Virus record (IMG/VR): IMGVR_UViG_3300050121_000298
Location: 615 to 64,614 of that record
Origin: a virus
Taxonomy: Duplodnaviria > Caudoviricetes
Direction: 5' to 3' (one strand)
DNA length: 64,000 nucleotides
Shown here: in pieces, positions 2,388 through 62,112 of the stretch
Layout: each line of letters begins with the position of its first letter
Numbering within the stretch: the first letter of the stretch is position 1
Notes under the pieces: generated by a model
Database searches by the model: none
Told to the model about the DNA's origin: nothing
The model's input: only the letters and a program-made list of their open reading frames with translations
Program-made: the position numbers and the translations under genes

Positions 2388-2436
2388 GTGACCTCGAAGG
2401 GACTCAAACCCTTGACCTTCAGAACCGGAATCTGAC
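2388..2436 (-). tRNA. 3' half of tRNA-Arg(CCG); non-functional fragment, putative att site
   Basis: - strand GTCAGA-TTCCGGT-TCTGA AGGTC AAGGG-TTTGAGT-CCCTT CGAGGTC AC gives anticodon arm (CCG), variable loop, T arm and 3' acceptor strand; no D arm or 5' acceptor strand upstream. Confidence 0.85.
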
Positions 2437-2493
2437 AATTCATGAAGTATAGTCAGTTTACTTATAGTGTGTTATAAATTGTTTTTTCATCTC

Positions 2494-2514
2494 TGGTATT
2501 ACATTGGTATTACA
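2494..2514 (+). repeat. Direct repeat TGGTATTACA x2, candidate integrase arm-type sites
   Basis: 10-mers at 2494-2503 and 2505-2514, about 60 bp inside the tRNA fragment. Confidence 0.5.
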
Positions 2515-2686
2515 AACACTAAAAACACGTTTTTCTTTGTCTAAAATGAAGCTTCTTTATTCTTTTCTGTGCCTTTTGAGAACATCTACAGATACCCCTT
2601 ATTGTGAATACAAGAGGAAAACCTTAAAGATTTAACAAATATAACGAAAATAAACGACATATTCACATTTTTTTGTAAAATTCTAT

Positions 2687-2736
2687 TATATTTGTAGAAA
2701 TAACTTCACCAAGTAAACATTAAATGTCTACATTTG
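2687..2736 (+). promoter_or_regulatory. Bacteroidota sigma-A type -7 boxes
   Basis: TATATTTG at 2687-2694 and TACATTTG at 2729-2736 match TAnnTTTG, upstream of the 2841 ORF. Confidence 0.55.
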
Positions 2737-2752
2737 TTCAGTTCTTAGGAAA

Positions 2753-2806
2753 TACTACTAAGATTTTTGTACCCTACTACTAAGGTTTTTGTACCCTACT
2801 ACTAAG
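2753..2806 (+). repeat. 22-bp tandem repeat (2.5 copies), iteron/operator-like
   Basis: TACTACTAAGrTTTTTGTACCC at 2753 and 2775, TACTACTAAG at 2797. Confidence 0.8.
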
Positions 2807-2840
2807 AACTAGTAAATAATATTAAAATATACAAAATATC

Positions 2841-3161
2841 ATGAAACAATTTGCATTAACGCCTGATCAAATATCCGAAATGCAGAAACTTTTGGAAACA
2901 GGGTACACCCCTTTAGACATTTCCAGATACTTCGAGATCGGAATTACGTCTGTTCATAATTATAAAAACAGACTAAAGGAAAAAGGAATAGTTCTTCCAA
3001 GCGTGAAAGGAAAGCGCCCTCAAGGATTAGTTCCATTAAAAGATGATGAACTTGTAACAGGCAAAACCATCAAAGTCTACATCAATGGTGTCATGTTTAG
3101 CGTAACAGGAAAACCAAAAAGTGTAATCATAACAGAAGATAACCTAGAAGTTACTTACTAA
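2841..3161 (+). CDS. Helix-turn-helix DNA-binding protein
   Basis: LLETGYTPLDISRYFEIGITSVHNYKNRL fits an HTH pattern; has its own promoter and terminator. Confidence 0.7.
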   Translation: MKQFALTPDQISEMQKLLETGYTPLDISRYFEIGITSVHNYKNRLKEKGIVLPSVKGKRPQGLVPLKDDELVTGKTIKVYINGVMFSVTGKPKSVIITEDNLEVTY

Positions 3162-3309: not shown

Positions 3310-3594
3310 ATGATAATAAGTTTACCAAGCGGAAGATGTGCCGAGATGAGTGTTGAACAGTACCTGTCTATGACTCTCGAAGATCTATCTGACATAGAAG
3401 CATATGGTTACGGTGAAGAAATTTACGATCCGTTTCACGCCTCTGTACTCACATTCGGAGAATTAAAAAGCCCAAAGTCCTTTAATGAGCCTGAAGAATC
3501 GGAAGATTCAGAGGAATTATTAGAGGATTTGTTGTCTATAACTGAAGAGGTTAAACGCGCCGATAAAGAATTTATCTGCGAAGACGAGGCTTAA
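3310..3594 (+). CDS. Small highly acidic phage protein
   Basis: ORF at the head of an operon, preceded by a promoter-like box; roughly 26 D/E in 94 aa. Confidence 0.65.
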   Translation: MIISLPSGRCAEMSVEQYLSMTLEDLSDIEAYGYGEEIYDPFHASVLTFGELKSPKSFNEPEESEDSEELLEDLLSITEEVKRADKEFICEDEA

Positions 3595-3653
3595 TCACCT
3601 TCTTATATCCTGATGCTGCCTGGCCGCCAACTGGTAATTACTAAACCCATCTC

Positions 3654-3950
3654 ATGCAAAAAACAAAGATCAAACCCGTCTCCAAGAAAAGGCAGACACT
3701 TAACAGAATGTACACCATTCTGAGAAAGGCTTTCTTCTTGGAACCAAAGAACCAGTATTGTCATGCTCATCTCTCAGGATGCACAGGAAACAGGCAAGAA
3801 TATTTAACGGTGCACCATAAGAAAGGACGAGGAAAATACTTCCTTGATGTTTCGACATGGTTATCAGCATGTTTTAACTGTCATCAATGGATCGAGACGC
3901 ATCCAGAAGAAGCTAAAGAACTTGGACTCAGTGAGTCAAGATTATCATAA
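3654..3950 (+). CDS. HNH/NinG-like endonuclease
   Basis: C..C, TVHHKKGRG and CFNCHQWI zinc/HNH-like motifs. Confidence 0.7.
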   Translation: MQKTKIKPVSKKRQTLNRMYTILRKAFFLEPKNQYCHAHLSGCTGNRQEYLTVHHKKGRGKYFLDVSTWLSACFNCHQWIETHPEEAKELGLSESRLS

Positions 3951-3972
3951 TCACTAACTAACATTAACACTC

Positions 3973-4182
3973 ATGACTGTTTTTAAAGGTTATTACTGTT
4001 TTGGAGCAGCCTCGCAACAAGCGGCTGACTCACAACAAGGACTCTGTATCTGGATGCAAGGGCCTCCTAGCAGAACACGAAAGTATTTTATGAAGCTGTT
4101 ATTCGACGCTTACTGGATATACCGTGAAAAGATCAAAGACACCTCAAAAAAGAAAACCACACCTAATTATGACAAATCGTGA
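3973..4182 (+). CDS. Hypothetical phage protein
   Basis: ATG-started ORF filling the gap between operon genes. Confidence 0.5.
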   Translation: MTVFKGYYCFGAASQQAADSQQGLCIWMQGPPSRTRKYFMKLLFDAYWIYREKIKDTSKKKTTPNYDKS

Positions 4183-5254
4183 AGAAATTATCAATAAAGC
4201 TCTATCTATTATCCTGCCCTTAAAACGCAGTGGAATAGGTTTGGCGATGGGAATCGGGAAGACCTTCATAGGACTTAAACACATGGAGAACCGGTACAAC
4301 AAAGGCAAACGAAAGTTCCTTGTAGTTGCACCTAAACTCTCTATCATCGAGACCTGGAAGAGTGAAGCCGTAAAATTCCACATGGAGTATCTTATCGGAC
4401 ATGTCAACTTTACTACCTATCTGAGTCTGAACAAACAGTCAACAGATTATGATGTAGTTTATCTTGACGAGTGTCACAGCCTTACATATGGTCATGAACT
4501 CTGGTTAGGTATGTTCGGGGGAGAAATACTGGGATTAACAGGTACACCCCCAAAGCGTGATGACACAGAAAAAGGCAAAATGATAAGCATGTTCTGTCCT
4601 ATCGTATATACCTACGTGGTAGACCAGGCAGTTGACAGCAAGATTCTGAATAACTACAAAATCATTGTCCATGCTCTGCCACTGGGTCAACAGAACACAT
4701 ACCTGATCAAAACCAAGACGAGAAACTTCATGACCAGTGAACAGAAATCATACAAGTACTGGACCGACATGGTGGAAGCCGCAGGATCTAAAAAAGAGGA
4801 GATGTTTCAACGTATCAAACGCATGATGCATATGAAAGCCTTTCCTTCTAAGCTGAAATATGCTTTGACTCTTGCAGGGGAAACCACAGACAAAGTACTC
4901 ATCTTTTGTAACACTCAGGAACAAGCCGAACAAGCATGTAAGTTTTCTGTCCATAGTAAGAACCCGGACAGTAAAGCAAACCTTAAGATGTTCGAGTCAG
5001 GTGCTATCAGAAGACTATCTTGCGTACAACAGCTTAATGAAGGAGTAAACATCCCTAACCTGAAAGAGTGTATCGTTTTACATTCTTATGCCAATGAACG
5101 TAACTTCTCTCAGCGATTTGGCAGGATGCTCAGACTAAATCCTGATGACACAGCGACCATACATATTTTAATGTATACAGGTACTGTGGACGAACAATGG
5201 GTAATGAAAGCCTTGGAGGAATTTGACAGTTCTAAAATATCGTACAATGTCTAG
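4169..5254 (+). CDS. Superfamily 2 (DExH) helicase
   Basis: Walker A MGIGKT, DECH, TGT, LNEGVNIP, QRFGRMLR; ATG at 4169 preferred over GTG at 4124. Confidence 0.9.
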   Translation: MTNREEIINKALSIILPLKRSGIGLAMGIGKTFIGLKHMENRYNKGKRKFLVVAPKLSIIETWKSEAVKFHMEYLIGHVNFTTYLSLNKQSTDYDVVYLDECHSLTYGHELWLGMFGGEILGLTGTPPKRDDTEKGKMISMFCPIVYTYVVDQAVDSKILNNYKIIVHALPLGQQNTYLIKTKTRNFMTSEQKSYKYWTDMVEAAGSKKEEMFQRIKRMMHMKAFPSKLKYALTLAGETTDKVLIFCNTQEQAEQACKFSVHSKNPDSKANLKMFESGAIRRLSCVQQLNEGVNIPNLKECIVLHSYANERNFSQRFGRMLRLNPDDTATIHILMYTGTVDEQWVMKALEEFDSSKISYNV

Positions 5255-5624
5255 TGGAACAATAATGCTAAAATTCGAGGGCGACACCCTTGTCCCTGTT
5301 AATAACAAGGATGTCGTTCTCTTTAATCAGCTACGAAAAGCTGTAGGTGATGGGACTATGATCGGGTACTTAGATGAAGCAGACAGTGAAGATCATCGCA
5401 ACTACCTGGCAAAAGTGCATAAATCAATAAGAGTATTGTCTTTTCATACGGGTTTTACTTTTGAGGAGATGAAGAGTGTCATTAAAAAACGTTCTGGTCT
5501 GTATATGACATCTAAATTAGGCATCGAGTATAAAAGTTTTGCTTATTGTACTAAAGAAGAATTAATGTTGGCAATACAAGCTTGTGTGGATCTTTCTATT
5601 GATGTTGATGTTACGATTTACTGA
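5247..5624 (+). CDS. NinB-like recombination protein
   Basis: HTGFTFEEMKSVIK...KSFAYCTKEELMLAI resembles NinB/Orf family; overlaps the helicase stop. Confidence 0.55.
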   Translation: MSSGTIMLKFEGDTLVPVNNKDVVLFNQLRKAVGDGTMIGYLDEADSEDHRNYLAKVHKSIRVLSFHTGFTFEEMKSVIKKRSGLYMTSKLGIEYKSFAYCTKEELMLAIQACVDLSIDVDVTIY

Positions 5625-5911
5625 TCAGCCGGGACAATATAGCCTTCTTGTTTGGCTAATTCCTCAAACTCTTTTAGAAAGATAAGCATTGTTTCATAAT
5701 GAGATACCCAAGGATCAGTGATGGTATCAGTCTCGATTTGTTTGTTAATGAGCTTCATCTTTTCAAGATCAAGTTCACCGTTTTCGAATGAACAATTTGT
5801 GATAAGAAGGTACTCGGCTGTGTCAGCGATTCGAATCTGAAAAGCCGTACAGACTTTCATGGATACGATTGCAGTTGGCACGATGGTTTCAATGCTAGGA
5901 TTTGGTGTCAT
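5618..5911 (-). CDS. Hypothetical phage protein, opposite orientation to its neighbours
   Basis: ATG-started ORF filling the gap; promoter-like TATCTTTA on the - strand near 5950. Confidence 0.6.
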   Translation of the reverse strand: MTPNPSIETIVPTAIVSMKVCTAFQIRIADTAEYLLITNCSFENGELDLEKMKLINKQIETDTITDPWVSHYETMLIFLKEFEELAKQEGYIVPADQ

Positions 5912-5987
5912 CGTTTAGTTTAGCTTATGTCTACAATTAAAGTAGTGCGTAAAGATATAAACTTTCAAACATATTATAGGAATTTTT

Positions 5988-6698
5988 ATGAAAAAGAATA
6001 ATTATGCTGATACAGCCGAAAAACTGCAAGTATTTTTCAAGCAATCTGGTTGGTTTGATGTCTTTAAAACGTTCTTACTTAGTGAAGATTTTGTAAAGAT
6101 CATTGTACAACTCAGTGACAATGTAGACGATGGTTTGCGTTTTACTCCGACACTAAAACAAGTCTTTAATGCATTCATAAAATGTAAATATGACACGTTA
6201 AAAGTAGTGATAATCGGTAAATATCCGTATGAAAGCATTGGGATAGCCGATGGCATGGCATATTCATGTTCAAATACAGGTAAACCTGTACTTGTTTTAC
6301 GCAATATCCTGAATGCTGTATCAAAGACGGTGTATCCCAAAGAAACCAGACAAAAAAATCCAAATCCTGACCTATCACGATGGGCCGAACAGGGAGTCTT
6401 GTTACTCAATTTGAGTCTTACTACAGGTATCGACAAGAGAAATAACCATGAAAAGATATGGCAGCCTTTCACAGCGTTTGTGATAGACACTTTAAGTAAA
6501 AAGAACCCCGATCTGGTCTGGATATTACTCGGTAACACCTGTGAAATTAAAGACCTTATAAGTGGAGACGATCTCACGATTTTGAGTGGCAACTCTTTGG
6601 GAACTCCGATGAACTTTTCGAATTGGGACTGTCACGATATTTTTAATCGAGCCAATGTTCAACTTCTAAAAATAAATAAAGAATCTATTGTTTGGTGA
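5988..6698 (+). CDS. Family-1 uracil-DNA glycosylase homologue with degenerate catalytic motifs
   Basis: VFNAF..C....LKVVIIG, DLSRWAEQGVLLLN.SLT and HEKIWQPFT are UNG-like; GQDPY reads GKYPY and no HPSP motif is present. Confidence 0.8.
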   Translation: MKKNNYADTAEKLQVFFKQSGWFDVFKTFLLSEDFVKIIVQLSDNVDDGLRFTPTLKQVFNAFIKCKYDTLKVVIIGKYPYESIGIADGMAYSCSNTGKPVLVLRNILNAVSKTVYPKETRQKNPNPDLSRWAEQGVLLLNLSLTTGIDKRNNHEKIWQPFTAFVIDTLSKKNPDLVWILLGNTCEIKDLISGDDLTILSGNSLGTPMNFSNWDCHDIFNRANVQLLKINKESIVW

Positions 6699-6702
6699 TA
6701 GT

Positions 6703-6730
6703 GTTCTACACTATCTTTGTAAGCTCTACA
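6703..6730 (+). promoter_or_regulatory. TAnnTTTG promoter flanked by TCTACA motifs
   Basis: GTTCTACA 6703-6710, TATCTTTG 6712-6719, TCTACA 6725-6730. Confidence 0.6.
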
Positions 6731-6740
6731 TTTTAAAACT

Positions 6741-7754
6741 ATGGCTAAACCTGCTAATCTCGGAATTAAACATGTCAGCAGAACTTATGATGAAACACTG
6801 GATTTCATCAAAAAGCGTGCCTCGGGTGAAGAAAGATCGATATTAACTCCATGGGCCAGCATGAACGATGGCTTATTGGATGGTATCCCCTGGAACAGCG
6901 TGACGGTAATTGGAGCGAGACCGGGTACAGGCAAGACACTTATAGCAAGTCTCATCACAAGAAATTCTTTTGCCTTAAATCCTACTCAGGACTTTGTGGT
7001 GTTGGACTTTCAATATGAAATGCTTGCTCGTAACAGTGCCTTAAGGGACCTGGGACGATACTCCGGAAAGAGTATGCGTCAACTTAACTCATGCAGGAGA
7101 GACGGTATCATGACCGCTAAAGATATAGCAGAGGCAGAGGCATTTTTTAACATGAAACGAACACATCCTATATATGTCAAAGAAGAACCATGTACGGTAG
7201 CGCGGATGGCAGAGATCCTTCCAGAGTTCTGTGATGATCCTCGTATTAAAGGAAAACGTGTGATCGTGACTTTGGATCATACCTTACTTGTGAAACAAGA
7301 TTCCAAGACAGAGAACTCGTCCAACGAGACATTGTATCATCTAGGTGCCTTCCTCTCTACTGCGAAGAGACAACTACCTGTTACATTTATCATCCTGTCT
7401 CAACTCAAGCAAGAGGTAGATGGAGTAGAACGTACTCGTATTCCTTTAAACCACTATCCTGTCATGCGAGACATACTCGGTGCCGACTCTATTACGCAGA
7501 ATGCAGATACCGTCATCATCATGAATCGTCCTGCAAAGAATCAGATCTGGAAATACGGGCCCAAAGAATTTAATATTGTCGATGACAAAGTCATGGCAGT
7601 ACATATCGTCAAGGGACGTGACGGAGGAGAGTCAATGTTTTGGCTCAAAGCCGATTTTGAACATATGAATATCTTGGACATGCCTCATTCTGAGATTCCA
7701 TTGCCCACATCATCCGCTGCTCCCGCATATTCGGGTGCAACTTATAAAAAATAA
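6741..7754 (+). CDS. dnaB: DnaB-like replicative helicase (C-terminal RecA-fold domain only)
   Basis: GARPGTGKT Walker A, FQYEM, LDH, IILSQL, DSITQNADTVI, KGRDG. Confidence 0.88.
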   Translation: MAKPANLGIKHVSRTYDETLDFIKKRASGEERSILTPWASMNDGLLDGIPWNSVTVIGARPGTGKTLIASLITRNSFALNPTQDFVVLDFQYEMLARNSALRDLGRYSGKSMRQLNSCRRDGIMTAKDIAEAEAFFNMKRTHPIYVKEEPCTVARMAEILPEFCDDPRIKGKRVIVTLDHTLLVKQDSKTENSSNETLYHLGAFLSTAKRQLPVTFIILSQLKQEVDGVERTRIPLNHYPVMRDILGADSITQNADTVIIMNRPAKNQIWKYGPKEFNIVDDKVMAVHIVKGRDGGESMFWLKADFEHMNILDMPHSEIPLPTSSAAPAYSGATYKK

Positions 7755-7757
7755 ATC

Positions 7758-8312
7758 ATGTCAGAACCTACCAGTTATGTAAAAATTTCAACAGAAGAAC
7801 GTAACCGAAAGATTGCCGAGATCAAGGCTTTCTGGAAGACTACACTAGCTGCTACTCCTTTTAAGGAGGCTGCTCCAATACCTAAACAGATGTACTACAA
7901 CTCATCTGACCCCGACAGTAGGGGAATATACTGTTTTAAGAATGAACTTTCTGCCGGTGATATCCTGATAGAAGTGGTGAATGCTGACTTTGTACCTATC
8001 GAAACAAAACGTTGTATACATATCCTCAAGCAAAACCCTGATTTTCTCACAGAGTATGTCGCTACAGGGAGTTATGACAGTTATGTCGTTCCGCTATCAA
8101 AGTTAACCTTGCTGATCACCGCGAGAGAACCTGAGTCTACACCAGAAGTCAAAGCCAACCTGGCAACACTTTCTGAGAGTCTTCCTGTGAGTAAGATGTT
8201 TGGCGATAATCCGGACTGCAATTTTGCAGACATCACGGCCCGCGACCTGTTTGCTATCCTACACCAAAAACCTGTCTCTAACAAAGACTGGATCAACGAA
8301 ATGGTTAAATAA
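7758..8312 (+). CDS. Hypothetical phage protein
   Basis: Tightly packed operon ORF of 184 aa. Confidence 0.7.
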   Translation: MSEPTSYVKISTEERNRKIAEIKAFWKTTLAATPFKEAAPIPKQMYYNSSDPDSRGIYCFKNELSAGDILIEVVNADFVPIETKRCIHILKQNPDFLTEYVATGSYDSYVVPLSKLTLLITAREPESTPEVKANLATLSESLPVSKMFGDNPDCNFADITARDLFAILHQKPVSNKDWINEMVK

Positions 8313-8318
8313 TAAACT

Positions 8319-9107
8319 ATGAGTGACACACTTGTTGCCCCTGCTCCAGCATTAGCTGTTGCACCCGGTATTATGTTACCGATGGATGCCTTACCCGCTC
8401 TGTCACAAAACCCGAAGACATTGGTACTGTTTTCCAAACCAAAGATTGGGAAGACCACCTTGTTATCAAAACTAGGAGGTTGTCTACTTTTGGATTTAGA
8501 AGACGGTAGTGATTATGTCTCGGCTGTAAAAATCAAAGCCACTACCTATACTGCTATGATGCAGATAGTAAAGAAAATCAACGAGGCCGGTAACCCTTAC
8601 AAGTACCTTGCTGTCGATACCATCACGGCCCTGGAGGAGATAGTCATTCCATATGCCGAATACCTCTATCAACAGACTCCTATGGGAACCAAGTGGTTTA
8701 CAGAAACCAAGCTGAAGTACAAGAGCATCTTAAACCTACCTAATGGGGGCGGATACTTATATTTAAGACTGGCATTTGAAGCTGCTATCAAAGCATTACA
8801 CTCGGCTGCTCCCGTACTGATCCTGATGGGTCACTTAAAAGACACGATACTGGATAAAAACGGTAGCGATTTCACCTCATCAGATTTAGATCTTACAGGT
8901 AAACTTAAACGCATGGTGACTTCTTCGGCAGATGCTATCGGATATATCTACCGTGTTAAGAACAAAAACATGATCACATTCGCTTCTACTGATGAGGTAG
9001 CCTGTGGCGCAAGACCAGCACATTTACGTAATCAAACTTTTCCTATCTCAGAGTTTAATGACGAAACCGGAGTATATACTTCACATTGGGATAAAATCTT
9101 TATTTAA
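8319..9107 (+). CDS. AAA_24/Sak4-like ATPase
   Basis: SKPKIGKTT Walker A variant, LLLDLEDGS, AVDTIT, ILMGH, ADAIGY; upstream of an SSB-like gene. Confidence 0.78.
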   Translation: MSDTLVAPAPALAVAPGIMLPMDALPALSQNPKTLVLFSKPKIGKTTLLSKLGGCLLLDLEDGSDYVSAVKIKATTYTAMMQIVKKINEAGNPYKYLAVDTITALEEIVIPYAEYLYQQTPMGTKWFTETKLKYKSILNLPNGGGYLYLRLAFEAAIKALHSAAPVLILMGHLKDTILDKNGSDFTSSDLDLTGKLKRMVTSSADAIGYIYRVKNKNMITFASTDEVACGARPAHLRNQTFPISEFNDETGVYTSHWDKIFI

Positions 9108-9127
9108 TCACTTCTAAAACAATCATC

Positions 9128-9877
9128 ATGTCATTCAGTGTAGAAAATTACGACGAGAATAAATTTGGTGGACTCTCAGCATTTTTGGATCCAGGTCAGC
9201 ACACAGTACGTCTTCTGGACTTAGTCCTGGAAGAAGCTCCTTATAAAACCAAAGAGGGAGGTCCTGTTTTCTTCTTACGTCTCACCGTAGAAGGAGAGAA
9301 ACAAGATCCCGATTTCAAAGGCTGGCTGATCGATACCGAAAATCCTGATCTCGGTGCTTACGAAGGACAGATCGGAACCCTTAACCACGGTCCTTTCGGC
9401 TTCTCTCAGTATAAGGAGTTTTCATGGGAAGAACAAGTATTTAACTGGGTATGTGACTTCGCTAACCACGTAGGCAAACTGGAACAGATCCGCAAGATCA
9501 AAGAGGAAGACATCTATTCCTTTATTCAGAAGGTTAAACTTGTCTTATGTGATCCTTCTGTATGGTTTTTACTGACTATTGCAGGTCAGGAATATACCAA
9601 CAAGAAAGGTTTCTCTACTTATCGTCTGTTTATCCCCAAGGATCACACCAAGAAATACAGACGTGCCTTTGCTTCTCTGGAACTCTCTTCAGAACTTCTT
9701 GAGAAGAAGTTTTTGTTCTATGATGCCAAGGTACATCTTGTTCCAGAGAGGAACAAAGAAGCAGCCCCTACTGTCAATGAATTCTCTGGTGCCAATGAAG
9801 GACCTACTGAGAACTTTGAGGAAGCAATGGCAACTGTTGAAGTCGCTAATGCTTTACCAGAGACGTTTGATTTCTAA
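9128..9877 (+). CDS. Putative single-stranded DNA-binding protein
   Basis: Position after the Sak4-like ATPase, LDPGQHTVRLLD start, acidic tail ending in aromatic ETFDF. Confidence 0.55.
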   Translation: MSFSVENYDENKFGGLSAFLDPGQHTVRLLDLVLEEAPYKTKEGGPVFFLRLTVEGEKQDPDFKGWLIDTENPDLGAYEGQIGTLNHGPFGFSQYKEFSWEEQVFNWVCDFANHVGKLEQIRKIKEEDIYSFIQKVKLVLCDPSVWFLLTIAGQEYTNKKGFSTYRLFIPKDHTKKYRRAFASLELSSELLEKKFLFYDAKVHLVPERNKEAAPTVNEFSGANEGPTENFEEAMATVEVANALPETFDF

Positions 9878-9885
9878 ATAGTAAT

Positions 9886-9922
9886 AAGACCCGGTATGAG
9901 GCTTACTTATACCGGGTCTTTT
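9886..9922 (+). terminator. Rho-independent terminator
   Basis: AAGACCCGGTATGAG-gctta-CTTATACCGGGTCTT-TT. Confidence 0.8.
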
Positions 9923-9937
9923 AATTTCTTCAGGCTT

Positions 9938-10976: not shown

Positions 10977-10991
10977 CTTAAACAACATTTT

Positions 10992-11405: not shown

Positions 11406-11411
11406 ACAACC

Positions 11412-53287: not shown

Positions 53288-53911
53288 CTACAGATAATCA
53301 ACTTCTCCACCTGCTTGGAGAAACTGTTTGAGTTCTCCATCATTCATCTCATACTCGCCACCGTCTTTATATTGGAAGTTGTTACCTGAATTCTGTGCAT
53401 ACGTCATCTTACCCGGTTGGAAGTTTTGTCCCTGACCACGGTTGGTAGTATAGTCACCATACGGGTTTTCATTGATAGGATACTGATCATAGGTAACATC
53501 GGTGTTACCGTTACGTTGCATCATGTCGTTGTAGGCCTGTTCGTTATTATGATCCCCTTTGATCTTACCCAATATTCCTATTCCACCAATGATCTCATTT
53601 GCCATTAAGGTACCATCTTGTGGTAGTCCTGATGATTTCTCTATAGAAGGAGATAACTTTGGATCCACTGGAAGACCTATTGCCTTTGCAGCGATACGGT
53701 TTAGATCAGTTACTGGTTTTGCATAAGGATTGTTGAGATTGTTGACCGGCATCTTCAAACCTTGTTTCACCGTCATCGGTTGCAGTCTCTTTTCCAGATA
53801 AGGATCAAAAGTAGAAGGTTGACCAAACTGATACGGTTTCTTCTCAGAGTGATCCAGTAGACCATCTGTTAAATACCATGGTAGTTGACTATCATCAAAA
53901 AAATTATTCAT
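53288..53911 (-). CDS. Small virion protein
   Basis: Follows the muzzle gene with 1-bp overlap; ends YKDGGEYEM...LQAGGEVDYL. Confidence 0.65.
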   Translation of the reverse strand: MNNFFDDSQLPWYLTDGLLDHSEKKPYQFGQPSTFDPYLEKRLQPMTVKQGLKMPVNNLNNPYAKPVTDLNRIAAKAIGLPVDPKLSPSIEKSSGLPQDGTLMANEIIGGIGILGKIKGDHNNEQAYNDMMQRNGNTDVTYDQYPINENPYGDYTTNRGQGQNFQPGKMTYAQNSGNNFQYKDGGEYEMNDGELKQFLQAGGEVDYL

Positions 53912-56900
53912 TATCTAGGACTTTGTAATTGTTTCGTAACAAACATTTTCAGTAACATCTTAACGTTGTTACTGACTGTCTTCCTGAGCCATACAAAGTT
54001 CGTATAGTGACGGAACTTCTTACGCTGCGAGACAGGTTTCTTATAGTTGATGAATCTAGGGTTGATCGTCTTAGTGTATCCGTTCTCATCTGTGTTCCAC
54101 ATCGGGAAAGTATTGGGGACGAACTCACCATAGTTCTCAGAGATGTCATCGAACTGATTGAAGCGATACTTTTCCTCTTCTAAAGAATACAGGATGTCTG
54201 TCCCGTTGACGTCAGAGGATTTAGTCAGCATCTTACCTGGTAAATTTTTAGGCTTACAGGATAGTCTGAGAACACCTGAGTTCTGTATAGTGTTATAGAT
54301 GATACTCCTATCAAAATTATAGTCAGGCACGATCATCTTATCGCGACCTTCGTTTTTGTAGATGAAGTTCTCAAGCATGTATTCCACACTTCTCAGTGTG
54401 TTGATGTCTAGTCCTGTCCCTGAAGGTATCTCTACCTCGAAAGGATAGTCTTTACCATAGAAGTTACAGAACAAGTCTGTACGGACATTGTGTCTCCACA
54501 GTTTGTTGTCTTTGATCGTGATGAAGTGTGCAGGTGAATGCATCACCAGTCCCGGAACCCAGTCATGATATGCCAGCCACATAGAACTCTTTGCATCGTA
54601 ACTTACGGTCCAACTACAGTCTTGGAAATAAACAGGATCTCCCAGTTCTACTTTCAGGTTATCATGATGAACCGTGATAGGTTTAGGATGAAAAGTGGTG
54701 ATGATAGGATCTTGTGGAACATAGGTGATAATAGGATCCTGTGGTGTAACCACGACAATGGGATCTTGCGGGATATAAATAGTTACAGGATCACCTTGAT
54801 CTATAGTAACAATAGGAGCATCACTTTGGACACGTGAACAGGAAGGAGCAGTACAGTCAGCATTTACCGACTGCGTATATCCTGTAGGACAGGTGTATTC
54901 TGTAACCCCTATCTCTGTCTGGCCACGGGTAGTAAACAACACTGTGAGATCTGCATAAGAAGTAGCTGCAGCAATCTCCAAGGCTGTGTTGTCATATATC
55001 TCGGCTGCAAAACAAGCCACAAGTCCCTCATTGTAACCCTCTACTTTTAACAGGTGTGACCCTGCAGAGAGTAGTACCGGATAGATGTGAAGCATCTTAA
55101 AGGTGATCGTGGTATCAGAAGAGGAGTGATTGGCTTGCATAGCCAGAGAATCAGAGCTAAACAGTAAACTACCATCCAAGGTGACACGAAATCTATTATC
55201 TGCTGCCAGAGCTATATATACCGTTTTCTCTTCGGCCAAACAGATAGAGGTAGTAAAACCTATCCATGTTAGGTCAGGGGCATCTACACCCCATATTGAG
55301 AGACGATTAACAGGTCCATTATCTTCTCCACTTTTCCAAAAGAGATTCGTAGGATTGATCATCACATAATCACCAGTTCCGTTTGACAGATACGTGTTAT
55401 AGATAGCAGTACCGTAAGTTCCGTAAGCGGAAAATTTAACAGCCATCACAGTAGTTTTGGTGGCCTCGGACGTAGGATCAGAATACATTGTCTTTACACA
55501 CATGTCATCCTTCAACTCGTAACCTGAATTACATGAGAGTACATTAAAGGGATTTGGGTAAGTAATCTCTTCTATTGGAGGTACTTCTATGGTAGTAATA
55601 ACATCAGCAACCGGGGTAACAACCTTCTTATTGGGACGAGTTACTTTGGTAATGATATCTGCAGGTTGTATGATAGTGTCAGGATCAGACGTCTTGATAT
55701 AGAACCCGATCTCAGGGTCATAGAGAACACCAGGTTTAACCTTGAAGTCACGTTTGGAGAAATATACAATATCATATGTAGGATCGTATACCGTCTGACA
55801 ACCAACACCCATGACAGGATTATCGGGATATTTGTAGTCCGGGAACTGAGTAAGTAACCTACTGGGTAGATACTTCTCAAACCAGTACTTCATACCCTGT
55901 TCACTGATGTCTTTGAAACCACCTTGAAACTGAAATATCTTCTTATTCTCCTGAGAGATGTAGAATAGACCCATAGGAGTATTGACGGCACTAAACTTAC
56001 TCTGACAACTGCCTACATGAAATTCTTCTTCGGCATTAGAGAGTGACTGCAGGGACTGTTGAAAGAGTCCACCGTCACCGATAGTGATCTTGGTACCTGC
56101 ATCTGTCTTTAAGGTATCATTGCCTATGAAAGACATAGGGTCTTCTTTCTCAAATAAGATGATAGCGCCACCACTGGGTAAGGACTTCATAGAAGTAACT
56201 ATCCCTTTGAAGTCAAAGTAGTTATTAGCCAGGTAAATCTTCCAGTTGTCTTTACGCAGTCCGGCCACCTGTCTAAGTGAGTACACGGCACGTGTAGGAA
56301 AATACGACTGAAACGACTTAGGGTCGGCAGGGTCGAAATATTTAGGAAGTGGTGTGGCGAAAGAGATGTAGTTACTAAAGAGTTTACTGATACTCAGACT
56401 CTCGTCATATTTACAGTAGTTTCCTCTGGTGATTAGGTCACTGCGAAACATCATAGAGATGTCTCTGTTGTTATCTGCATAGTGTTTCTGATACTGTTCC
56501 AGACCCTGCTCACGGAAAGCCAGGTTCATGTCACTCTCGACAAAGAAATCCCGTACCCCGTTACAGGTAAGGTAGAAGTAAGCATTCTTGACAAAGAAGA
56601 GTCCCGAGTTGCTACCCCTGTCAAAGTGATGCATGTTGGCAGGACTGTTGATAGAGATAGGACTCTTAAGAGAGAACTTTAGTTTTATACTCAGATCTCC
56701 CATGTCGAACTTGTCTAAGTCCGCCCAGTATCTAGGGTATGGACCGTTGATATAGTTCTTGTAGTTGAACTCTGTGTCGTCTACCTCTCCCGAAAGCCAT
56801 GTGTTAAAGAACATATAAGGGTTCTTCTCGGTATAACGGTTGATGTAAACGTCACCACCAAAGAGAGTTCCAGTAGAATATAGTTTCGTGTCGGGGTTGG

Positions 56901-59643
56901 TAGGAAATACCTTTGGAGAAACCGGTATCTGAATGATGTTATCCAGTTGTCCATACTGATTTGCATATGCCAGTTTCAAAGCGCCATAGTAGGCGCTGGT
57001 CTGAGTGATGACTTCGTTGTGAGTAGGTTCAGCATAGTTGCCCATGTCAGCCAGTCTCACACGAGAGTTGTCTTGCGTGTCGGGTTCTACGATGTCACCA
57101 TCTACGTGAAGAGCAACATATTCCCCTCTGAAAAGGTTGTTGACCCGGTAGTCACCGTCAAAATCCTGTAGGAAAGAGTTGATGTATTTCCCTGTCTTCA
57201 CTGTCCTGCGGGTATTGTCTTGTGTTACGGGAGAGAAGTATTTATAGAAACCATGAGCATTGTACTGCAGGGCATATTGCCTAAGAGGCCCGAAAGAATA
57301 GATCGTGTCCAGAGTAGTACTTAATCCCAATGCTCCGTAGTAGACAGCACCAGCAGCAGCCATAGCGATACCGGCTAAAGTAGTCATAGGTGTTTGAACG
57401 ATAGCATTTATAGTATCACCTATAGCTGAGGCTGTTCCCGCTTCTCTCGAAGAAGATGAAGTCTTATCAGCTCCCGCAAAAATGATACTCGCTTTAGCTG
57501 TGTATGAACCTGTTGTAGTAGTCTTCCCAATGGCCGAAATGATCGCTACTCCTGTTCCGATAACACAAGCAAACACGAAACTAGTGTCTGTGATAACACG
57601 GTGCTTCGGATGCTTGTATGGGAACTCGAACTTACCTACTACCTCACCTATTTCTTCTGTATAAAGTTTCACACTACAAGCAGAGAGATATGGCTTCTTA
57701 AAGGTCGTATCAGGAGAGTGAAAAGAGTAGTAGTCTTTCTTATACATCTCAGGTGCTTCGTCTTCATTACCGTTACCGTCACCACCCCTGGATAAAGTAT
57801 TTCTCAGGAGTTTATTTGGTCTAAGGTCATTAAAGGGGAAGTTCTGATAAAGTCCTTTACGTCCTGTTTTCGTAGTAGTTAAAGAGTCAGAACCTGTTGT
57901 GACAAGATTAGATACTTCTTGTGCGGTCCGCTCGGTAGGATTTTCTGTGCCAGTATTCTTTGTTGCAGCACTCTGTAAGCTGGCATCAAGTTCTTTGGTG
58001 AAGTCATAAGGATCTGCGATAGAACCGTCTTCGTTATGGTCTATAATGTCATATTCCCAAAGGTTGTTAAACATACCCTTTGCGATGATAGACTTGTTTC
58101 CCTCACGTGAACCACGTAGTATCTCATAGCCTATGATATCTTTTCGAGGGTCACCGTTCTGATCAAGAGGGTGAGTGATACCTGAGAATTCTACACCCAA
58201 TATAATGATGTTATTACCACCCTGATCGTGAATATGTGTCATGGCGTTATCCGGAAATTTATGATGACGGATATTTTTACCACAGTTCTCTCCCCATATC
58301 AGAGGTTCATCATCCGGGTATCTCTCACTCGATTCCCAATAGGACATATTCCCTCTTGCGATAATCGTACCTCCGTCATCTAAAAGTCCGTTGGCCGAGA
58401 CTCTAGTAGCGGTGTTGTAAGACTGCCACTGTTTGTTTTCATCAGGCAACACGTCTTTTCCGTATACATGAGAGAGATCGCTCCCTACAGCCTTTCTACC
58501 TGTTATATGAAATGAGGCACTTACCTGCGCCGTATTGTGAATCCACTTTATAGAGAATGCGTATACTTCATCGCGCATATAGGAAGGATTATTTCCTCCA
58601 TTGACATAGTAGTCTTGAGGGTAACTCACGGCCACCCATTTTGCCGTGATCTTATTGGCTTGTGGCTGGTAGTTAAAGTCGGGATGAGAGGTGACACCGG
58701 TACGGATAAGATACCCGTTGATGTTATAGATACCGTCACTCTTAGGATATACACTCGAAGCCACAAAGATCTGTTCCAGTGGAACGGTGATCCATGCCTG
58801 ATCGATATAACCTATGTTTACTTTTGTCTGTCTGGTAGAATAGAAACCTATCCTTCTAGCAACGGTCTGGTTGTTGATGACAGAGATGATGACAAGTTCA
58901 AACTCCTGATAGGTACTATCTATCTGATAGATGTCGATATCCAACGCTCCACCACCATTTTGCTCTGACCATAGAGGTTGAACATTGCTCAGGTTATAGT
59001 AGTCCGTGGCACGGATGCCATCGACACTATATGCCATAATAGCCTGATAACTACCGTTAAGTAGTTGACCTGTGCCTTTAGACTTGCTAACAAAGCATAC
59101 TGGAGTCACCACGTTACCTTGAAGTTTGATCTTCTCTGTGTCGAGGGTATTGGTATATTCGGGGACAAAACACGAGGGATCAGAAGAGAGATTCTTACCG
59201 GTTGTCATATAGGGGATCTCGTCAAGGTTTAAGAACCTGTCGGGATTGTTTCCATCTTGCCAGTAGACAGAATAAGAACCGTCCTGATTTCTTCTTGAGA
59301 CACCGGTGATTAAATATTTTGCGGAGAAGTTTAGTCCTTTATCGTTTATAACTTTCTGATAGGTATCCAGTTTCTCACTGAATATTCCTATCTCACTGCC
59401 CGTCTCATTACAAGAGAATACGATCCACTCGTTGTTGATCTTCTGCACTACTCCCATGACGGTATAATCCAGTGTGGCGATCAGGGTGTTGGCCTGTTCA
59501 TTACCCAGATCACCATAGTCTCCGTTATGACTTCTGTTGATTGCATTACGGGCATGTGTCCAGCATCCTTCGGATATCCCATAAGAGTCTATATCTTTCA
59601 CCATGCCCTTAGTGAACATGTTTACATTATCTTGTTTAGTCAT
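53911..59643 (-). CDS. Tail stabilisation (muzzle) protein
   Basis: 1910 aa beta-rich; F.KGM.KD, YWQDG.NP.R.LN, YMRDEVYAF, YWES.E.YP, IRHHKFP, FGGDVYI, WTVSY; position after ring proteins as in crAss-like tails. Confidence 0.82.
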   Translation of the reverse strand: MTKQDNVNMFTKGMVKDIDSYGISEGCWTHARNAINRSHNGDYGDLGNEQANTLIATLDYTVMGVVQKINNEWIVFSCNETGSEIGIFSEKLDTYQKVINDKGLNFSAKYLITGVSRRNQDGSYSVYWQDGNNPDRFLNLDEIPYMTTGKNLSSDPSCFVPEYTNTLDTEKIKLQGNVVTPVCFVSKSKGTGQLLNGSYQAIMAYSVDGIRATDYYNLSNVQPLWSEQNGGGALDIDIYQIDSTYQEFELVIISVINNQTVARRIGFYSTRQTKVNIGYIDQAWITVPLEQIFVASSVYPKSDGIYNINGYLIRTGVTSHPDFNYQPQANKITAKWVAVSYPQDYYVNGGNNPSYMRDEVYAFSIKWIHNTAQVSASFHITGRKAVGSDLSHVYGKDVLPDENKQWQSYNTATRVSANGLLDDGGTIIARGNMSYWESSERYPDDEPLIWGENCGKNIRHHKFPDNAMTHIHDQGGNNIIILGVEFSGITHPLDQNGDPRKDIIGYEILRGSREGNKSIIAKGMFNNLWEYDIIDHNEDGSIADPYDFTKELDASLQSAATKNTGTENPTERTAQEVSNLVTTGSDSLTTTKTGRKGLYQNFPFNDLRPNKLLRNTLSRGGDGNGNEDEAPEMYKKDYYSFHSPDTTFKKPYLSACSVKLYTEEIGEVVGKFEFPYKHPKHRVITDTSFVFACVIGTGVAIISAIGKTTTTGSYTAKASIIFAGADKTSSSSREAGTASAIGDTINAIVQTPMTTLAGIAMAAAGAVYYGALGLSTTLDTIYSFGPLRQYALQYNAHGFYKYFSPVTQDNTRRTVKTGKYINSFLQDFDGDYRVNNLFRGEYVALHVDGDIVEPDTQDNSRVRLADMGNYAEPTHNEVITQTSAYYGALKLAYANQYGQLDNIIQIPVSPKVFPTNPDTKLYSTGTLFGGDVYINRYTEKNPYMFFNTWLSGEVDDTEFNYKNYINGPYPRYWADLDKFDMGDLSIKLKFSLKSPISINSPANMHHFDRGSNSGLFFVKNAYFYLTCNGVRDFFVESDMNLAFREQGLEQYQKHYADNNRDISMMFRSDLITRGNYCKYDESLSISKLFSNYISFATPLPKYFDPADPKSFQSYFPTRAVYSLRQVAGLRKDNWKIYLANNYFDFKGIVTSMKSLPSGGAIILFEKEDPMSFIGNDTLKTDAGTKITIGDGGLFQQSLQSLSNAEEEFHVGSCQSKFSAVNTPMGLFYISQENKKIFQFQGGFKDISEQGMKYWFEKYLPSRLLTQFPDYKYPDNPVMGVGCQTVYDPTYDIVYFSKRDFKVKPGVLYDPEIGFYIKTSDPDTIIQPADIITKVTRPNKKVVTPVADVITTIEVPPIEEITYPNPFNVLSCNSGYELKDDMCVKTMYSDPTSEATKTTVMAVKFSAYGTYGTAIYNTYLSNGTGDYVMINPTNLFWKSGEDNGPVNRLSIWGVDAPDLTWIGFTTSICLAEEKTVYIALAADNRFRVTLDGSLLFSSDSLAMQANHSSSDTTITFKMLHIYPVLLSAGSHLLKVEGYNEGLVACFAAEIYDNTALEIAAATSYADLTVLFTTRGQTEIGVTEYTCPTGYTQSVNADCTAPSCSRVQSDAPIVTIDQGDPVTIYIPQDPIVVVTPQDPIITYVPQDPIITTFHPKPITVHHDNLKVELGDPVYFQDCSWTVSYDAKSSMWLAYHDWVPGLVMHSPAHFITIKDNKLWRHNVRTDLFCNFYGKDYPFEVEIPSGTGLDINTLRSVEYMLENFIYKNEGRDKMIVPDYNFDRSIIYNTIQNSGVLRLSCKPKNLPGKMLTKSSDVNGTDILYSLEEEKYRFNQFDDISENYGEFVPNTFPMWNTDENGYTKTINPRFINYKKPVSQRKKFRHYTNFVWLRKTVSNNVKMLLKMFVTKQLQSPR

Positions 59644-60749
59644 TAGATAAACATGTTATAGTATCGGTGGTACATTGCTTTACGGTTCATCTCCTGTTTC
59701 TTCTGAAATTCCTTGAAGTCAGGTGTTCTGACAAAAGATAAGGCTGCTGTCTTGGCAGTATCAAGTTTAACCGCAATGAGTTGCATCTTGCGTTCCAGAT
59801 TGGGTTCGCCATTCAGGAACATGTTCTCAAAGATGGTGTCCTTGAATTGGTATTCATAGTAGTCGTTGACAAATTCATGATCCAGTACCAAAAGTCGTCC
59901 TCTCTCGTCTTCCATCAGAGAGACATATTCCATGTAGACTGTCCCGTCTTGGAAGTTAGCATGAAGAAAATTGTCTTTGATACTGACCGAATACTTACCA
60001 TTGACATTCAAGTTGGGACAATCGGGTAACACCTTTACGTGTCTGACAAAATTCAAAGGGACAAGTCTCTTATACCTATGTTGCTTCCGGGAGTCCGTGT
60101 ATCTTACCTCGGGATGATTAGGCGTATCAAGACTCAAATGGACAGCATTACTACCCAGTCCATCTTGTACATTACCAATGATCGTCATCTGAACATCAGA
60201 GATAGGTACCAAACCGTCATAGGTGAAGTGTATCTCGTTATCGTTAGGAGTAGTGAAGTCTGTAGTGAGAAGAGTACCACTTGAAGTCCTGAGTTGTATC
60301 ACCACATTGGTTGTCTTTAGGGTGTGTTTAACTACATTCAGTCCAGGAGAAATAGTGATTACAAGGTTTTGTTGACGCATGGTATTTTGACCCATCATGC
60401 CATAGACCAACTTGATCCCCTGTGCCACGACATTAGCCATCAGACTTCCAAAATCTTCTCTGGTATCGGTTGTCTTCACATCAGAGATATCGGTAGAACT
60501 TTTGTCGGTACATAAAACAGCAAATGAGACAGATGAGAAGTCATAAGGAAGTTTTCCTATTCCGCGATCTATCTCCACCAGTACCGTCTTACGGGGATTG
60601 ACCTTGACACCCAGTTGTCTATTGATGAACAGTGCTCTTTTGATAAGTTGCTGCGCTTCTATCTGATTCTCGACGTCTATGCCTGGCAGGTCTATCTTGA
60701 CACTATCGAGTAGTTCATCGAAGGTTCTATATTTAAGTTCTTTCTTCAT
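59643..60749 (-). CDS. Tail tubular (ring) protein
   Basis: YRTFDELL.SV..D, LPYDF, I..NF.DG.VY.EY.....DE.G.LLV.DH; adjacent to the muzzle gene. Confidence 0.7.
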   Translation of the reverse strand: MKKELKYRTFDELLDSVKIDLPGIDVENQIEAQQLIKRALFINRQLGVKVNPRKTVLVEIDRGIGKLPYDFSSVSFAVLCTDKSSTDISDVKTTDTREDFGSLMANVVAQGIKLVYGMMGQNTMRQQNLVITISPGLNVVKHTLKTTNVVIQLRTSSGTLLTTDFTTPNDNEIHFTYDGLVPISDVQMTIIGNVQDGLGSNAVHLSLDTPNHPEVRYTDSRKQHRYKRLVPLNFVRHVKVLPDCPNLNVNGKYSVSIKDNFLHANFQDGTVYMEYVSLMEDERGRLLVLDHEFVNDYYEYQFKDTIFENMFLNGEPNLERKMQLIAVKLDTAKTAALSFVRTPDFKEFQKKQEMNRKAMYHRYYNMFI

Positions 60750-60751
60750 GA

Positions 60752-61423
60752 TTATCTGAGTATGTTACGTTTATCTTCTTGTGTGTCTGTTGGGATACTG
60801 ACAAGAGGACTCATCTCATTGCGCACTTGTGTCTCGATCTCTCCTAAAAGATAATCGGGAATATTACTGGCGATGTCTAGTTTACTGAGACAGTCGTCCG
60901 TAGAGTCATCGTTAAAGTTGGTGATATCCTCATTAAAGGCAGCATCTATTCGTACCAGTTCCCATTCTATATTAGGGAAATAGAAATAACCATCTTCCCA
61001 CCAGTAGTACTTGTTCGTGTTATACTTAAAAGTCGATTGCTTGATCATCTTCTCGTAAGTACCACGTGTGATAGGGATTATCTGTGTGACGCCGTCTATT
61101 GAAGTAATACTACGTACCAAGGGACCCCAGTAGCCGGTCATCATCGTCGGGAGAATGAGAACGTTTCTTCTGATCGTGTGACCACTTGTCAGAAACGAAC
61201 AGTTCGCCTGTACCTTGTCGATCTCTTCCAGTTCTACTTTATGCAAGACCTGAAAGACGCTGTTCATCTTCATGATCTTGTTAGAGGAGTCCTGTCTGCG
61301 TATGATCCAGGCTGCGTGTTTCTTTACAATGGAGTAGATGTACCTACTTGTGAGAAAGGCGTCTTGCTTTGACCCTTTGAATGTGTTGCGTATACGGGAT
61401 ACGATTTCGCCTATCTTTGCCAT
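60752..61423 (-). CDS. Tail ring/adaptor structural protein
   Basis: IGEIVSRIRN..K....D, YYW.EDGYFYFPN, IP.D..ED; lies between IHF-like and tubular genes. Confidence 0.65.
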   Translation of the reverse strand: MAKIGEIVSRIRNTFKGSKQDAFLTSRYIYSIVKKHAAWIIRRQDSSNKIMKMNSVFQVLHKVELEEIDKVQANCSFLTSGHTIRRNVLILPTMMTGYWGPLVRSITSIDGVTQIIPITRGTYEKMIKQSTFKYNTNKYYWWEDGYFYFPNIEWELVRIDAAFNEDITNFNDDSTDDCLSKLDIASNIPDYLLGEIETQVRNEMSPLVSIPTDTQEDKRNILR

Positions 61424-61424
61424 C

Positions 61425-62000
61425 TTAGTCTAAATCAAATTCGTTATAGTTCTCTATGTTTATTTCTTTTTGATGATCAATTTGTACGAAGTTCTTACGG
61501 AACAAAGTGGACACATTCTGAATCTTGTCTAACTCTATGTATTTCTTCCACTGAGAAGGATATGTCTTAGCTACGGTACGTTTAAAGATCCTTGTGGCAG
61601 TGAGACCCCAAAGGTCACTATTGGCAAACTGATTCTTGAGTAATTTATTGACATAAAATATCTTGGCTACCCTGCCATCTGTCTCCCAGTTCTTATGTAT
61701 GATAGCACTTTCAAGTGTCTGTGACTTCTTAAAATCCAGGTTCTTATCTTCTTTGCATAATGTAGAACAGATGAAAATGTTTCCCAGTTGTACCGGGAGT
61801 TCTATGCCATCACGGTTGCCGATCACGGTATTCCAACATGTCTCGTTAAAGGTAAGAACGACTTTACGTAGTTCATCATCAGATAATACCCCTACATTTA
61901 TCCTACTACGTAACCCTGCATAATACTCTTTATTCAGTGTCGCAGTAACCACTTGTCTGTATCTTGGGGCCTTTAGATTTGGTTTTTTGGTTGTCGTCAT
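61425..62000 (-). CDS. IHF/HU-like DNA-binding protein (crAss-like)
   Basis: V..FNE..W..VI.NRDGIELP.QLG.I.I matches the IHF/HU core; ATG at 62000 preferred. Confidence 0.65.
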   Translation of the reverse strand: MTTTKKPNLKAPRYRQVVTATLNKEYYAGLRSRINVGVLSDDELRKVVLTFNETCWNTVIGNRDGIELPVQLGNIFICSTLCKEDKNLDFKKSQTLESAIIHKNWETDGRVAKIFYVNKLLKNQFANSDLWGLTATRIFKRTVAKTYPSQWKKYIELDKIQNVSTLFRKNFVQIDHQKEINIENYNEFDLD

Positions 62001-62004
62001 AAAG

Positions 62005-62025
62005 TGTAGTCTACAATAGAATTTA
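62005..62025 (-). promoter_or_regulatory. Putative promoter of the virion operon with palindromic operator
   Basis: TGTAG-T-CTACA palindrome 62005-62015; TAAATTCT on the - strand at 62018-62025. Confidence 0.5.
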
Positions 62026-62112
62026 CTAAAAAATCCCGACACTACCTATAAATAATTGTACATCACTGCTTTTTAAACACAAAAAACTGCGAATCTCATC
62101 GAGGGCATTCGT

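Follow-up and report, generated by a model that had tools for sequence, protein, structure and literature searches.

Do crAss-like phages, which are among the best-known phages of Bacteroidota, integrate into the chromosomes of their hosts? The question is raised by the IMG/VR record IMGVR_UViG_3300050121_000298, a single 64,614-bp sequence classed as 'provirus', of which bases 615-64614 were analysed here; this whole stretch of 64,000 nucleotides (nt) is called the window, and its positions are used throughout. A preliminary description, made from the letters of the window, had read 2388-62100 as a crAss-like phage genome integrated in a Bacteroidota chromosome and had proposed a temperate or endogenised lineage. 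The boundaries that we found (2388 on the left, 62079-62103 on the right) agree with those coordinates. The phage DNA is crAss-like and is joined to Bacteroidales DNA, but only about half of a genome of ~105-120 kb is present. Probably, 2388-62103 (~59.7 kb) represents what is left, in defective form, of a temperate phage with distant crAss kinship, carried in the chromosome of an uncultured Bacteroidales bacterium from peat. The integration of this prophage in the chromosome, at tRNA-Arg(CCG), is judged to be real. The gene content, the lost arc, the tRNA-derived left boundary, the real right junction and the equal depth inside and outside were observed directly.

The record begins at the ATG of its first gene and stops at the ATG of a minus-strand gene, which indicates that it was excised from a longer contig along gene borders. 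Comparison of the two record ends found no terminal repeat or circularity. Completeness of the record was estimated by CheckV at 51%.

Kinship of the element and the missing arc

The ring and muzzle genes of the preliminary description were recovered with crAss-specific Pfam families: crAss_MUZ (PF25731) matched at 80.7 bits and CrAss_Ring_2 (PF25702) at 51.4 bits, both above the cut-off of 27, and CrAss_Ring_1 (PF24228) at 25.0 bits, just under its cut-off of 27. The DxDxD RNA polymerase (RNAP) was likewise borne out. Residues D2632, D2634 and D2636, as well as H924-H928, are invariant in an alignment (A3) with two relatives, G001 and G002, and when RNAP residues 1801-3736 were used in tblastn, all 24 matching phage records were of crAss type, 5 of them being annotated as RNAP catalytic subunit or RNAP. 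The crAss-type large terminase subunit (TerL), portal and major capsid protein (MCP) are absent from the window and present in its lineage (G002, G005). The TerL and MCP of these two relatives matched those of the crAss001-group, cr*_1, FpV/FPSV, IAS and Azobacteroides phages at 23-27% identity, and those of the crAssE-Sib, phi4:1/phi17:2 and Lbo-JY46 phages in the same range. Going by the crAss-specific Pfam families, the RNAP matches and these TerL/MCP matches, the element is classed as crAss-like in the broad sense. Its family-B DNA polymerase (PolB) is nearest to non-crAss phages (31-34% identity). Taken with the best-hit pattern at 23-27% identity, this suggests that the lineage is a deep branch of the extended crAss-like assemblage.

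A search with the muzzle protein gave 16 IMG/VR loci at 45-53% identity. Four of the records with these loci (G002, G003, G004 and G014) have lengths of 120-124 kb and a CheckV completeness of 95-99%. Colinearity of the window with G002 runs from G002 position 110896 downward through the replication genes, and again from 36720 up to 75988. The window is without G002 110897-119946 plus 1-36719, one contiguous arc of ~45.8 kb. In G002 this arc carries the portal (phrog_6547), the major head protein (phrog_11589) and an exonuclease gene directly upstream of the homologue of the 205-amino-acid (aa) protein that stands first in the retained virion block. The relatives have the exonuclease gene and head genes upstream of this homologue, and in free relatives the arc also bears terminase and early genes.

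No terminase, portal, capsid or integrase gene was found in the record by PHROGs and Pfam searches. Since the head genes are absent, this copy is incapable of building heads; since the integrase and a second attachment (att) site are absent, it is incapable of excision by site-specific recombination. A functional prophage would hold full sets of head, packaging, tail, lysis and excision genes, and here an arc of ~46 kb is gone. The marks of a cryptic prophage are in part present: a large deletion relative to free relatives and single-copy depth were both found, but decay of the remaining genes by frameshifts or stops was not, the giant open reading frames (ORFs) being all open. The temperate, inducible reading of the preliminary description therefore fails for this copy, which has no head, packaging or integrase genes and no second att site, and it is the alternative word, endogenised, that fits.

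The retained genes were compared with those of the relatives. All 40 of the G001/G002 proteins with a match map to a single window frame (3 of them flagged by a crude ORF check only), and the ratio of nonsynonymous to synonymous polymorphism (pN/pS) against L124, a near relative described below, is 0.22 over eight replication genes. The intact frames and this low ratio suggest that the loss is recent, or that the block has been selectively kept, or that the other half lies elsewhere in the chromosome.

A separate observation concerns the ends of the relative G003. In this 123,730-bp record, labelled linear by IMG/VR, the start of the PolB gene is found at both ends (L017, L021), so that the assembly may be circular or permuted, with overlapping ends.

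The left boundary and the tRNA-Arg gene

The tRNA-Arg 3' fragment noticed earlier at the left edge was matched exactly. Window 2387-2437 is identical over 51/51 nt to L134 1498-1548, and L134 1474-1547 is the intact tRNA-Arg(CCG) gene of G017, a metagenome-assembled genome (MAG) with a Dcp protein 81% identical to that of the window; the shared part corresponds to tRNA positions 25-74 (+1). ARAGORN reported 0 tRNA genes in the record, and the Rfam tRNA model scored the fragment at 24.6 bits, under the gathering score. Metagenome scanning with the first phage gene brought up L124 (95% nt identity over 6.4 kb) and L125 (91%) as near relatives, and the alignment of each with the window begins at exactly 2388 and extends rightwards. 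Leftward of 2388 the flanks of the window, L124 and L125 all differ, and the left boundary lies at one nucleotide common to the three contigs. The left flank of L125 is a different, fragment-rich region with a piece of a Type ISP restriction enzyme and a piece of a resolvase. A hairpin stands at the equivalent place in L125 and also after the intact tRNA gene of G017; that of L125 is homologous to the G017 tRNA terminator (84.7% over 98 nt, fragment included). As judged from these alignments, the left end is the displaced 3' end of a tRNA gene, as after Campbell-type integration, and a true att-type junction.

As a candidate for an unoccupied site, G017 has its tRNA-Arg(CCG) gene intact without a phage; the surrounding genes are not syntenic with the window flanks. 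Flank synteny around Dcp in 80 Bacteroidota loci was limited to Dcp itself and unrelated kinase paralogues. A second copy of the att core was not found in the window. Exact IMG/VR searches with the full tRNA, the 46-nt core and a conserved stretch of the arm gave 0 matches each, the record itself possibly lying outside the searched set.

The non-coding phage arm next to the core has ~94% mean column identity with L124 and L125. Its 11-nt tandem repeat at 2494-2514 consists of TGGTATTACA twice. Across the window, L124 and L125 (columns 115-135 of alignment A6) this repeat near the att core reads TGGTATTACA, TGCTATTACA or TGTTATCACA, and in each contig both copies are altered in step. The repeat is a candidate arm-type binding site for a recombinase or a helix-turn-helix (HTH) protein.

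The right boundary and the sequencing runs

At the right end, phage homology stops at 62079-62103, in the spacer upstream of the 205-aa gene, and a kinase frame runs from 62104. Part of 60000-64000 is contained in 20 sequencing runs; five peat metagenomes hold 0.64-0.94 of the sampled words, and runs X6-X20 hold 0.20-0.40. Spanning sequence and coverage, which the preliminary description had named as the check on integration, were favourable at this junction. It is crossed by Logan contigs of three runs, X2 (58676-62152), X3 (61501-62152) and X4 (60900-62152), which reach 49 letters past it with 0, 5 and 1 differences, respectively. Depth is equal inside and outside: in X2 it is 44.2-49.5 for phage contigs and 41.1-47.9 for flank contigs, in X3 12.1-17.5 against 11.4 and 5.9, and in X4 3.4-8.2 against 8.1. 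A further set of contigs shares sequence from 62104 only, and before that point these contigs carry a kinase frame without interruption. Illegitimate joining within a histidine-kinase gene formed the right end.

Run X6 contains a phage variant of 90-99% identity at a depth of about 8-15, together with the kinase/hemerythrin region at 60-90. The contig of this variant stops at 62078, and its continuation is not visible.

Over 62104-62650, runs X2-X4 also hold a second version of the kinase/hemerythrin region, at similar depth in X2, with the upstream part of the kinase intact and a 91% variant further on. This second version is either the unoccupied allele of a co-occurring strain or a paralogue.

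Host genes on both flanks

The genes reported beside the element were only partly those expected. The dcp gene on the left and the histidine kinase and hemerythrin genes on the right were confirmed by Pfam (Table 1). The GH28 assignment on the left found no Pfam match and is left with a lead from Atlas, where the nearest clusters of the 121-aa ORF include 'GH28 protein (Fragment)' at 0.97. The IS4 element on the right fell away, as DDE_Tnp_1 (PF01609) was not found in the record and the 71-aa ORF had no informative Atlas match.

The Dcp-type protein is 80-81% identical in aa sequence to those of Bacteroidales/Bacteroidetes MAGs. On the right, the window shares a short interspersed repeat with two related Bacteroidales MAGs, G016 and G017, where it accounts for about 20 of the 49 listed places (75-82% identity over 50-100 nt); both genomes also hold many kinase paralogues. 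The Dcp identity on one side and the repeat and kinase paralogues on the other indicate that both flanks belong to one Bacteroidales clade, in keeping with the expectation that the locus identifies its host.

The repeat gives rise to contig breaks and uneven depth in the read data, with depth peaks and loose contig ends at 63113-63160.

An integrase and HTH cassette in relatives

The integrase families PF00589 and PF00239 gave no match in the record, and tblastn of the record with the integrase of G005 reached a best E of 0.9. G005 encodes a tyrosine integrase of 391 aa (Phage_integrase 52.2 bits, SAM_5 43.5 bits), and the next gene downstream codes for a 118-aa protein, the homologue of the HTH-like protein encoded at 2841-3161 in the window (36-41% identity). 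The same integrase-HTH adjacency was found, in phage context, in 8/8 more distant metagenome loci (L126-L133), which represent ~four distinct phages; L126 is identical to G005. G004, a close relative of G005, is without both genes. The cassette coming and going at one fixed place is further evidence for lysogeny in this branch. Its occurrence at that place, and its absence from a 70-96% identical relative, suggest that gain or loss affects the lysogeny genes jointly.

The cassette occupies L114 9275-10826 (G005 97274-98825), L127 8815-10351, L129 839-2456 and L130 8818-10357; the relative without it, 70-96% identical, is seen at L121 (G004 82019-82784). When 7 relative loci were searched with Rfam for att cores of tRNA type next to the integrases, only hairpins and one very weak match came up, which is no evidence of such cores. 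In L127 the spacer upstream of the integrase (8648-8665) matches the 3' end of transfer-messenger RNA at 11.3 bits (E 2), a mere lead to an attP site.

A proposed history and its difficulties

The following course of events would best account for the locus. A phage of ~105-120 kb would have integrated, via a tyrosine integrase and in the Campbell manner, at the host gene for tRNA-Arg(CCG), within its 3' half, and this would have left the displaced 3' 50 nt of the original tRNA, with its terminator, at the left end. Later, a single large illegitimate event would have taken out about 46 kb or more, its end points being in the spacer that precedes the 205-aa virion gene and in the middle of the histidine-kinase gene. 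The exonuclease, major capsid, portal, terminase and early genes would have been lost by it, and so would the integrase, the tRNA end that was intact and part of the host DNA. The replication module would have been kept, as would the tail, muzzle, cargo, RNA-polymerase and lysis block, with reading frames uninterrupted. We infer a deletion rather than a rearrangement, and a loss that is recent.

Several points weigh against this history and against the reading of the locus as a deleted prophage. The giant ORFs are wholly intact, which is unexpected in an old remnant. The record contains no integrase, second core copy or intact tRNA, and among the relatives searched in IMG/VR an integrase was found in only 1/15, and in 0/4 of those at least 90% complete; we infer the integrase step from relatives that are 36-41% identical in the neighbouring gene. 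In these relatives the integrase and HTH genes overlap or lie 4-25 bp apart, so that their attP cannot be at the position of the window's junction and the lineage of the window must have another arrangement. At the left boundary the flank of L124 is only 12 nt long, and the read-derived contigs examined were those at the right junction. Logan depth is one mean value per contig, and X2-X4 are all peat metagenomes, which maybe come from one campaign or include the source sample. No close copy of the element was found in IMG/VR, and a search for relatives of the ring protein in 185,579 species genomes gave 227 pattern matches with 0 confirmed. Lastly, the missing half may sit elsewhere in the same chromosome, as the parent contig extends past the record.

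Alternative explanations

This last point leads to the alternative that survives best, although we regard it as rather unlikely: a split prophage, from which nothing was lost. An inversion or translocation involving the kinase gene would have moved the half with the head, early and integrase genes elsewhere. Such an event would agree with a junction inside a kinase gene whose other half is outside the record, with the intactness of all retained genes, and with the record having been taken from a longer contig, so that the remainder of the chromosome is unseen. A reciprocal junction is, however, without direct evidence, and the X2 contigs with the upstream part of the kinase run into the same C-terminal part, as an uninterrupted allele or paralogue would.

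Selection on the retained block is a clearly less probable explanation. A head-less, crAss-derived block of replication, tail, cargo and RNAP genes might be used by the host or depend on a helper for its heads. It would then be a block that still replicates and is expressed, either parasitic on related crAss-like phages and dependent on a helper, or of use to the host as a device for injection or killing, the promoter of the virion operon having been spared; this too we think improbable to the same degree. About 45 kb of very long ORFs show zero frame breaks, and the end point of the deletion leaves a whole spacer of the 58-62-bp type before the first virion gene. Three runs whose release years differ contain the identical junction. 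The pN/pS of 0.22 in the replication genes points in the same direction, but purifying selection between two copies does not demonstrate selection after the truncation, and a recent deletion accounts equally well for the intact frames. Moreover, the block has no means of excision or packaging, and a second head-less copy was not found in IMG/VR, the species genomes or the metagenome scan.

A complete, inducible temperate crAss-like prophage is very improbable. The att-type tRNA fragment at the left end and the existence of relatives with an integrase would suit it, and it is already contradicted by the gene content: terminase, portal, capsid, integrase and second att are absent, completeness is about half by CheckV, and the depth inside equals that outside. 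Just as improbable is an assembly chimera of free phage and bacterial DNA, which the metagenomic origin, the gene fragments at both junctions and the break of the Logan contigs at 62152 might suggest, but which is opposed by per-run assemblies of three runs that cross the right junction with zero or few differences and matching depth on both sides, and by a left boundary that falls where a tRNA gene ends and that two further metagenome contigs share to the nucleotide.

Relation to known phages and prophages

Within the extended crAss-like assemblage (Crassvirales and outliers), the nearest known phages are Bacteroides phages crAss001/crAss002, the uncultured phages cr55_1/cr10_1/cr116_1, the epsilon group (crAssE-Sib), Flavobacterium phages FpV/FPSV, Cellulophaga phi4:1/phi17:2 and Leptolyngbya phage Lbo-JY46. 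The defective prophage favoured here is like them in its crAss-specific ring/muzzle Pfam families and in the giant DxDxD RNAP beside giant proteins. The replication module facing a virion module and the Bacteroidota host are also common to the assemblage. The lineage of the window differs in that all shared markers are only 21-27% identical over the longer matches, in its peat/soil habitat, and in the integrase of some of its members.

Tyrosine-integrase prophages that target tRNA genes follow the Campbell model, and they have cryptic derivatives, in which a deletion from within the prophage into the flank leaves a remnant that cannot be excised. The window resembles Campbell-type tRNA prophages in its displaced 3' tRNA fragment with terminator and its arm-side direct repeats, and the deleted forms of such prophages in a large internal-to-flank deletion and in being non-excisable. 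It differs from them in that an integrase and second att are absent and the mechanism is deduced, and in that the retained genes are without decay.

The preliminary description had held that characterised crAss-like phages propagate without integration. This accords with a 2023 review, the relevant passage of which describes them as unable to lysogenise (PMC10136315), and is softened by a 2024 paper that reports two incomplete epsilon-crAss-like prophage sequences in Parabacteroides with no integrase (PMC11054128). A 2025 survey lists 12 crAss-like prophages from the pig gut (PMC12454387). The epsilon-crAss-like prophages are reported to be like the window in being incomplete crAss-like sequences inside a Bacteroidales chromosome, and no integrase was found in the free phage genomes of the epsilon group, as none was found in the window (PMC11054128). 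They differ in lineage and habitat, and the window has a defined tRNA boundary, a missing arc and a read-level junction. The literature searched yielded no description of a crAss-like prophage whose att site had been mapped to a tRNA gene; the supplements of PMC11054128 and PMC12454387 may hold coordinates.

The present case adds evidence for integration by an environmental (peat/soil) branch of crAss-like phages, in the form of a nucleotide-resolved junction at tRNA-Arg(CCG), and links an uncultured phage lineage to an uncultured Bacteroidales host. Because the copy is defective, it documents past lysogeny and is no live temperate phage; lysogeny would be better tested in the relatives that carry an integrase (G005, L127-L133) than in the copy in the window.

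Other features of the window

Table 1. Features of the window, with positions, strands and the basis of each assignment
Position	Strand	Feature	Basis
1..1492	+	M3 peptidase (Dcp-type) gene, host flank	Pfam Peptidase_M3, 398.7 bits; starts at the record's first base
1973..2338	-	121-aa ORF, probably C-terminal fragment of a GH28-type enzyme	Atlas lead only
2340..2378	-	hairpin and T-run, terminator-like, directly 3' of the tRNA fragment	read from the sequence
2388..2437	-	3' 50 nt of tRNA-Arg(CCG), anticodon stem to 3' end; att core	identity to the G017 tRNA
2438..2840		phage arm, non-coding	11-nt tandem repeat and ~22-nt tandem repeat (about 2753-2806)
2841..3161	+	106-aa small HTH-like protein	weak HTH Pfam matches
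3310..17523	+	replication/recombination module	PHROGs, Pfam; colinear with G002 110896 down to 97379
4124-5254	+	SNF2-type helicase	PHROGs
5988-6698	+	uracil-DNA glycosylase (UDG)-like	Pfam UDG
6741-7754	+	DnaB-like helicase	PHROGs
8319-9107	+	Sak4-like	PHROGs
9896-10948	+	primase	PHROGs; Toprim_2 found in the module by Pfam
10992-11405	+	RusA-like resolvase	PHROGs
11412-12461	+	exonuclease	PHROGs
13501-15453	+	PolB	phrog_1252, 428 bits
17561..20875		small genes between the modules, function unassigned	no family matches
21020..24474	-	896-aa fibre-like and 236-aa endolysin-like proteins	PHROGs
24476..31297	-	2273-aa giant protein, cargo by position	PD-(D/E)XK nuclease domain; 31-37% identity to G001/G002 homologues
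31313..42523	-	3736-aa virion-type RNAP	DxDxD and HExxH motifs
42538..53911	-	four structural/cargo proteins (1754, 872, 918 and 207 aa)	same-order homologues in G001/G002; no family matches
53911..59643	-	muzzle protein, 1910 aa	Pfam crAss_MUZ
59643..61423	-	ring proteins, 368 aa (Ring_1-like) and 223 aa (Ring_2)	Pfam CrAss_Ring_1/CrAss_Ring_2
61425..62042	-	conserved 205-aa protein, encoded first in the retained virion block	37-48% identity to relatives
62079..62103		zone of the right junction, where a phage spacer meets the middle of a histidine-kinase gene	contig boundaries
62104..62367	+	histidine kinase C-terminal piece, host flank	HATPase_c, 45.1 bits, profile positions 65-109 of 111
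62546..62905	+	hemerythrin-domain protein, host flank	Pfam Hemerythrin, 36.8 bits
63103..63215		short interspersed repeat of the host clade	copies in G016/G017
63506..64000	-	CI-type repressor-like gene at the record's cut end, possibly of the phage	Phage_CI_repr, 34 bits; phrog_4, phrog_8

The PolB/primase/DnaB replication module announced in the preliminary description was found by PHROGs on the plus strand. Among the small genes that follow it, only 19592-20218 has homologues in G001 and G002. The minus-strand block spans 20288-62042.

The gene called IHF-like (integration host factor) at the head of this block, that of the 205-aa protein, had no Pfam or PHROGs match, and a fold model of the protein from a 6-sequence alignment was unusable (mean predicted local distance difference test score, pLDDT, 34.8). 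Sequence and profile searches of the PDB with the ring, muzzle and RNAP proteins gave no meaningful match. The RNAP has its zincin-type HExxH motif (window 39740-39754), which is covered by no Pfam family, a long way before the DxDxD loop.

At the other end of the block, the fibre-like protein matched phrog_38707 and phrog_1446, and the 236-aa protein matched phrog_3000 and phrog_33083 (endolysin). The label of giant cargo protein, which had been given earlier, comes solely from size and position. In the 2273-aa protein that bears it, PDDEXK_1 was matched at 25.1 bits (cut-off 22) over residues 441-571. The 207-aa gene (53288-53911) aligns with proteins of 1003-1510 aa in the relatives over no more than their first ~100 residues; it is a much shortened version of a variable, probably fibre-like protein, and its frame is unbroken.

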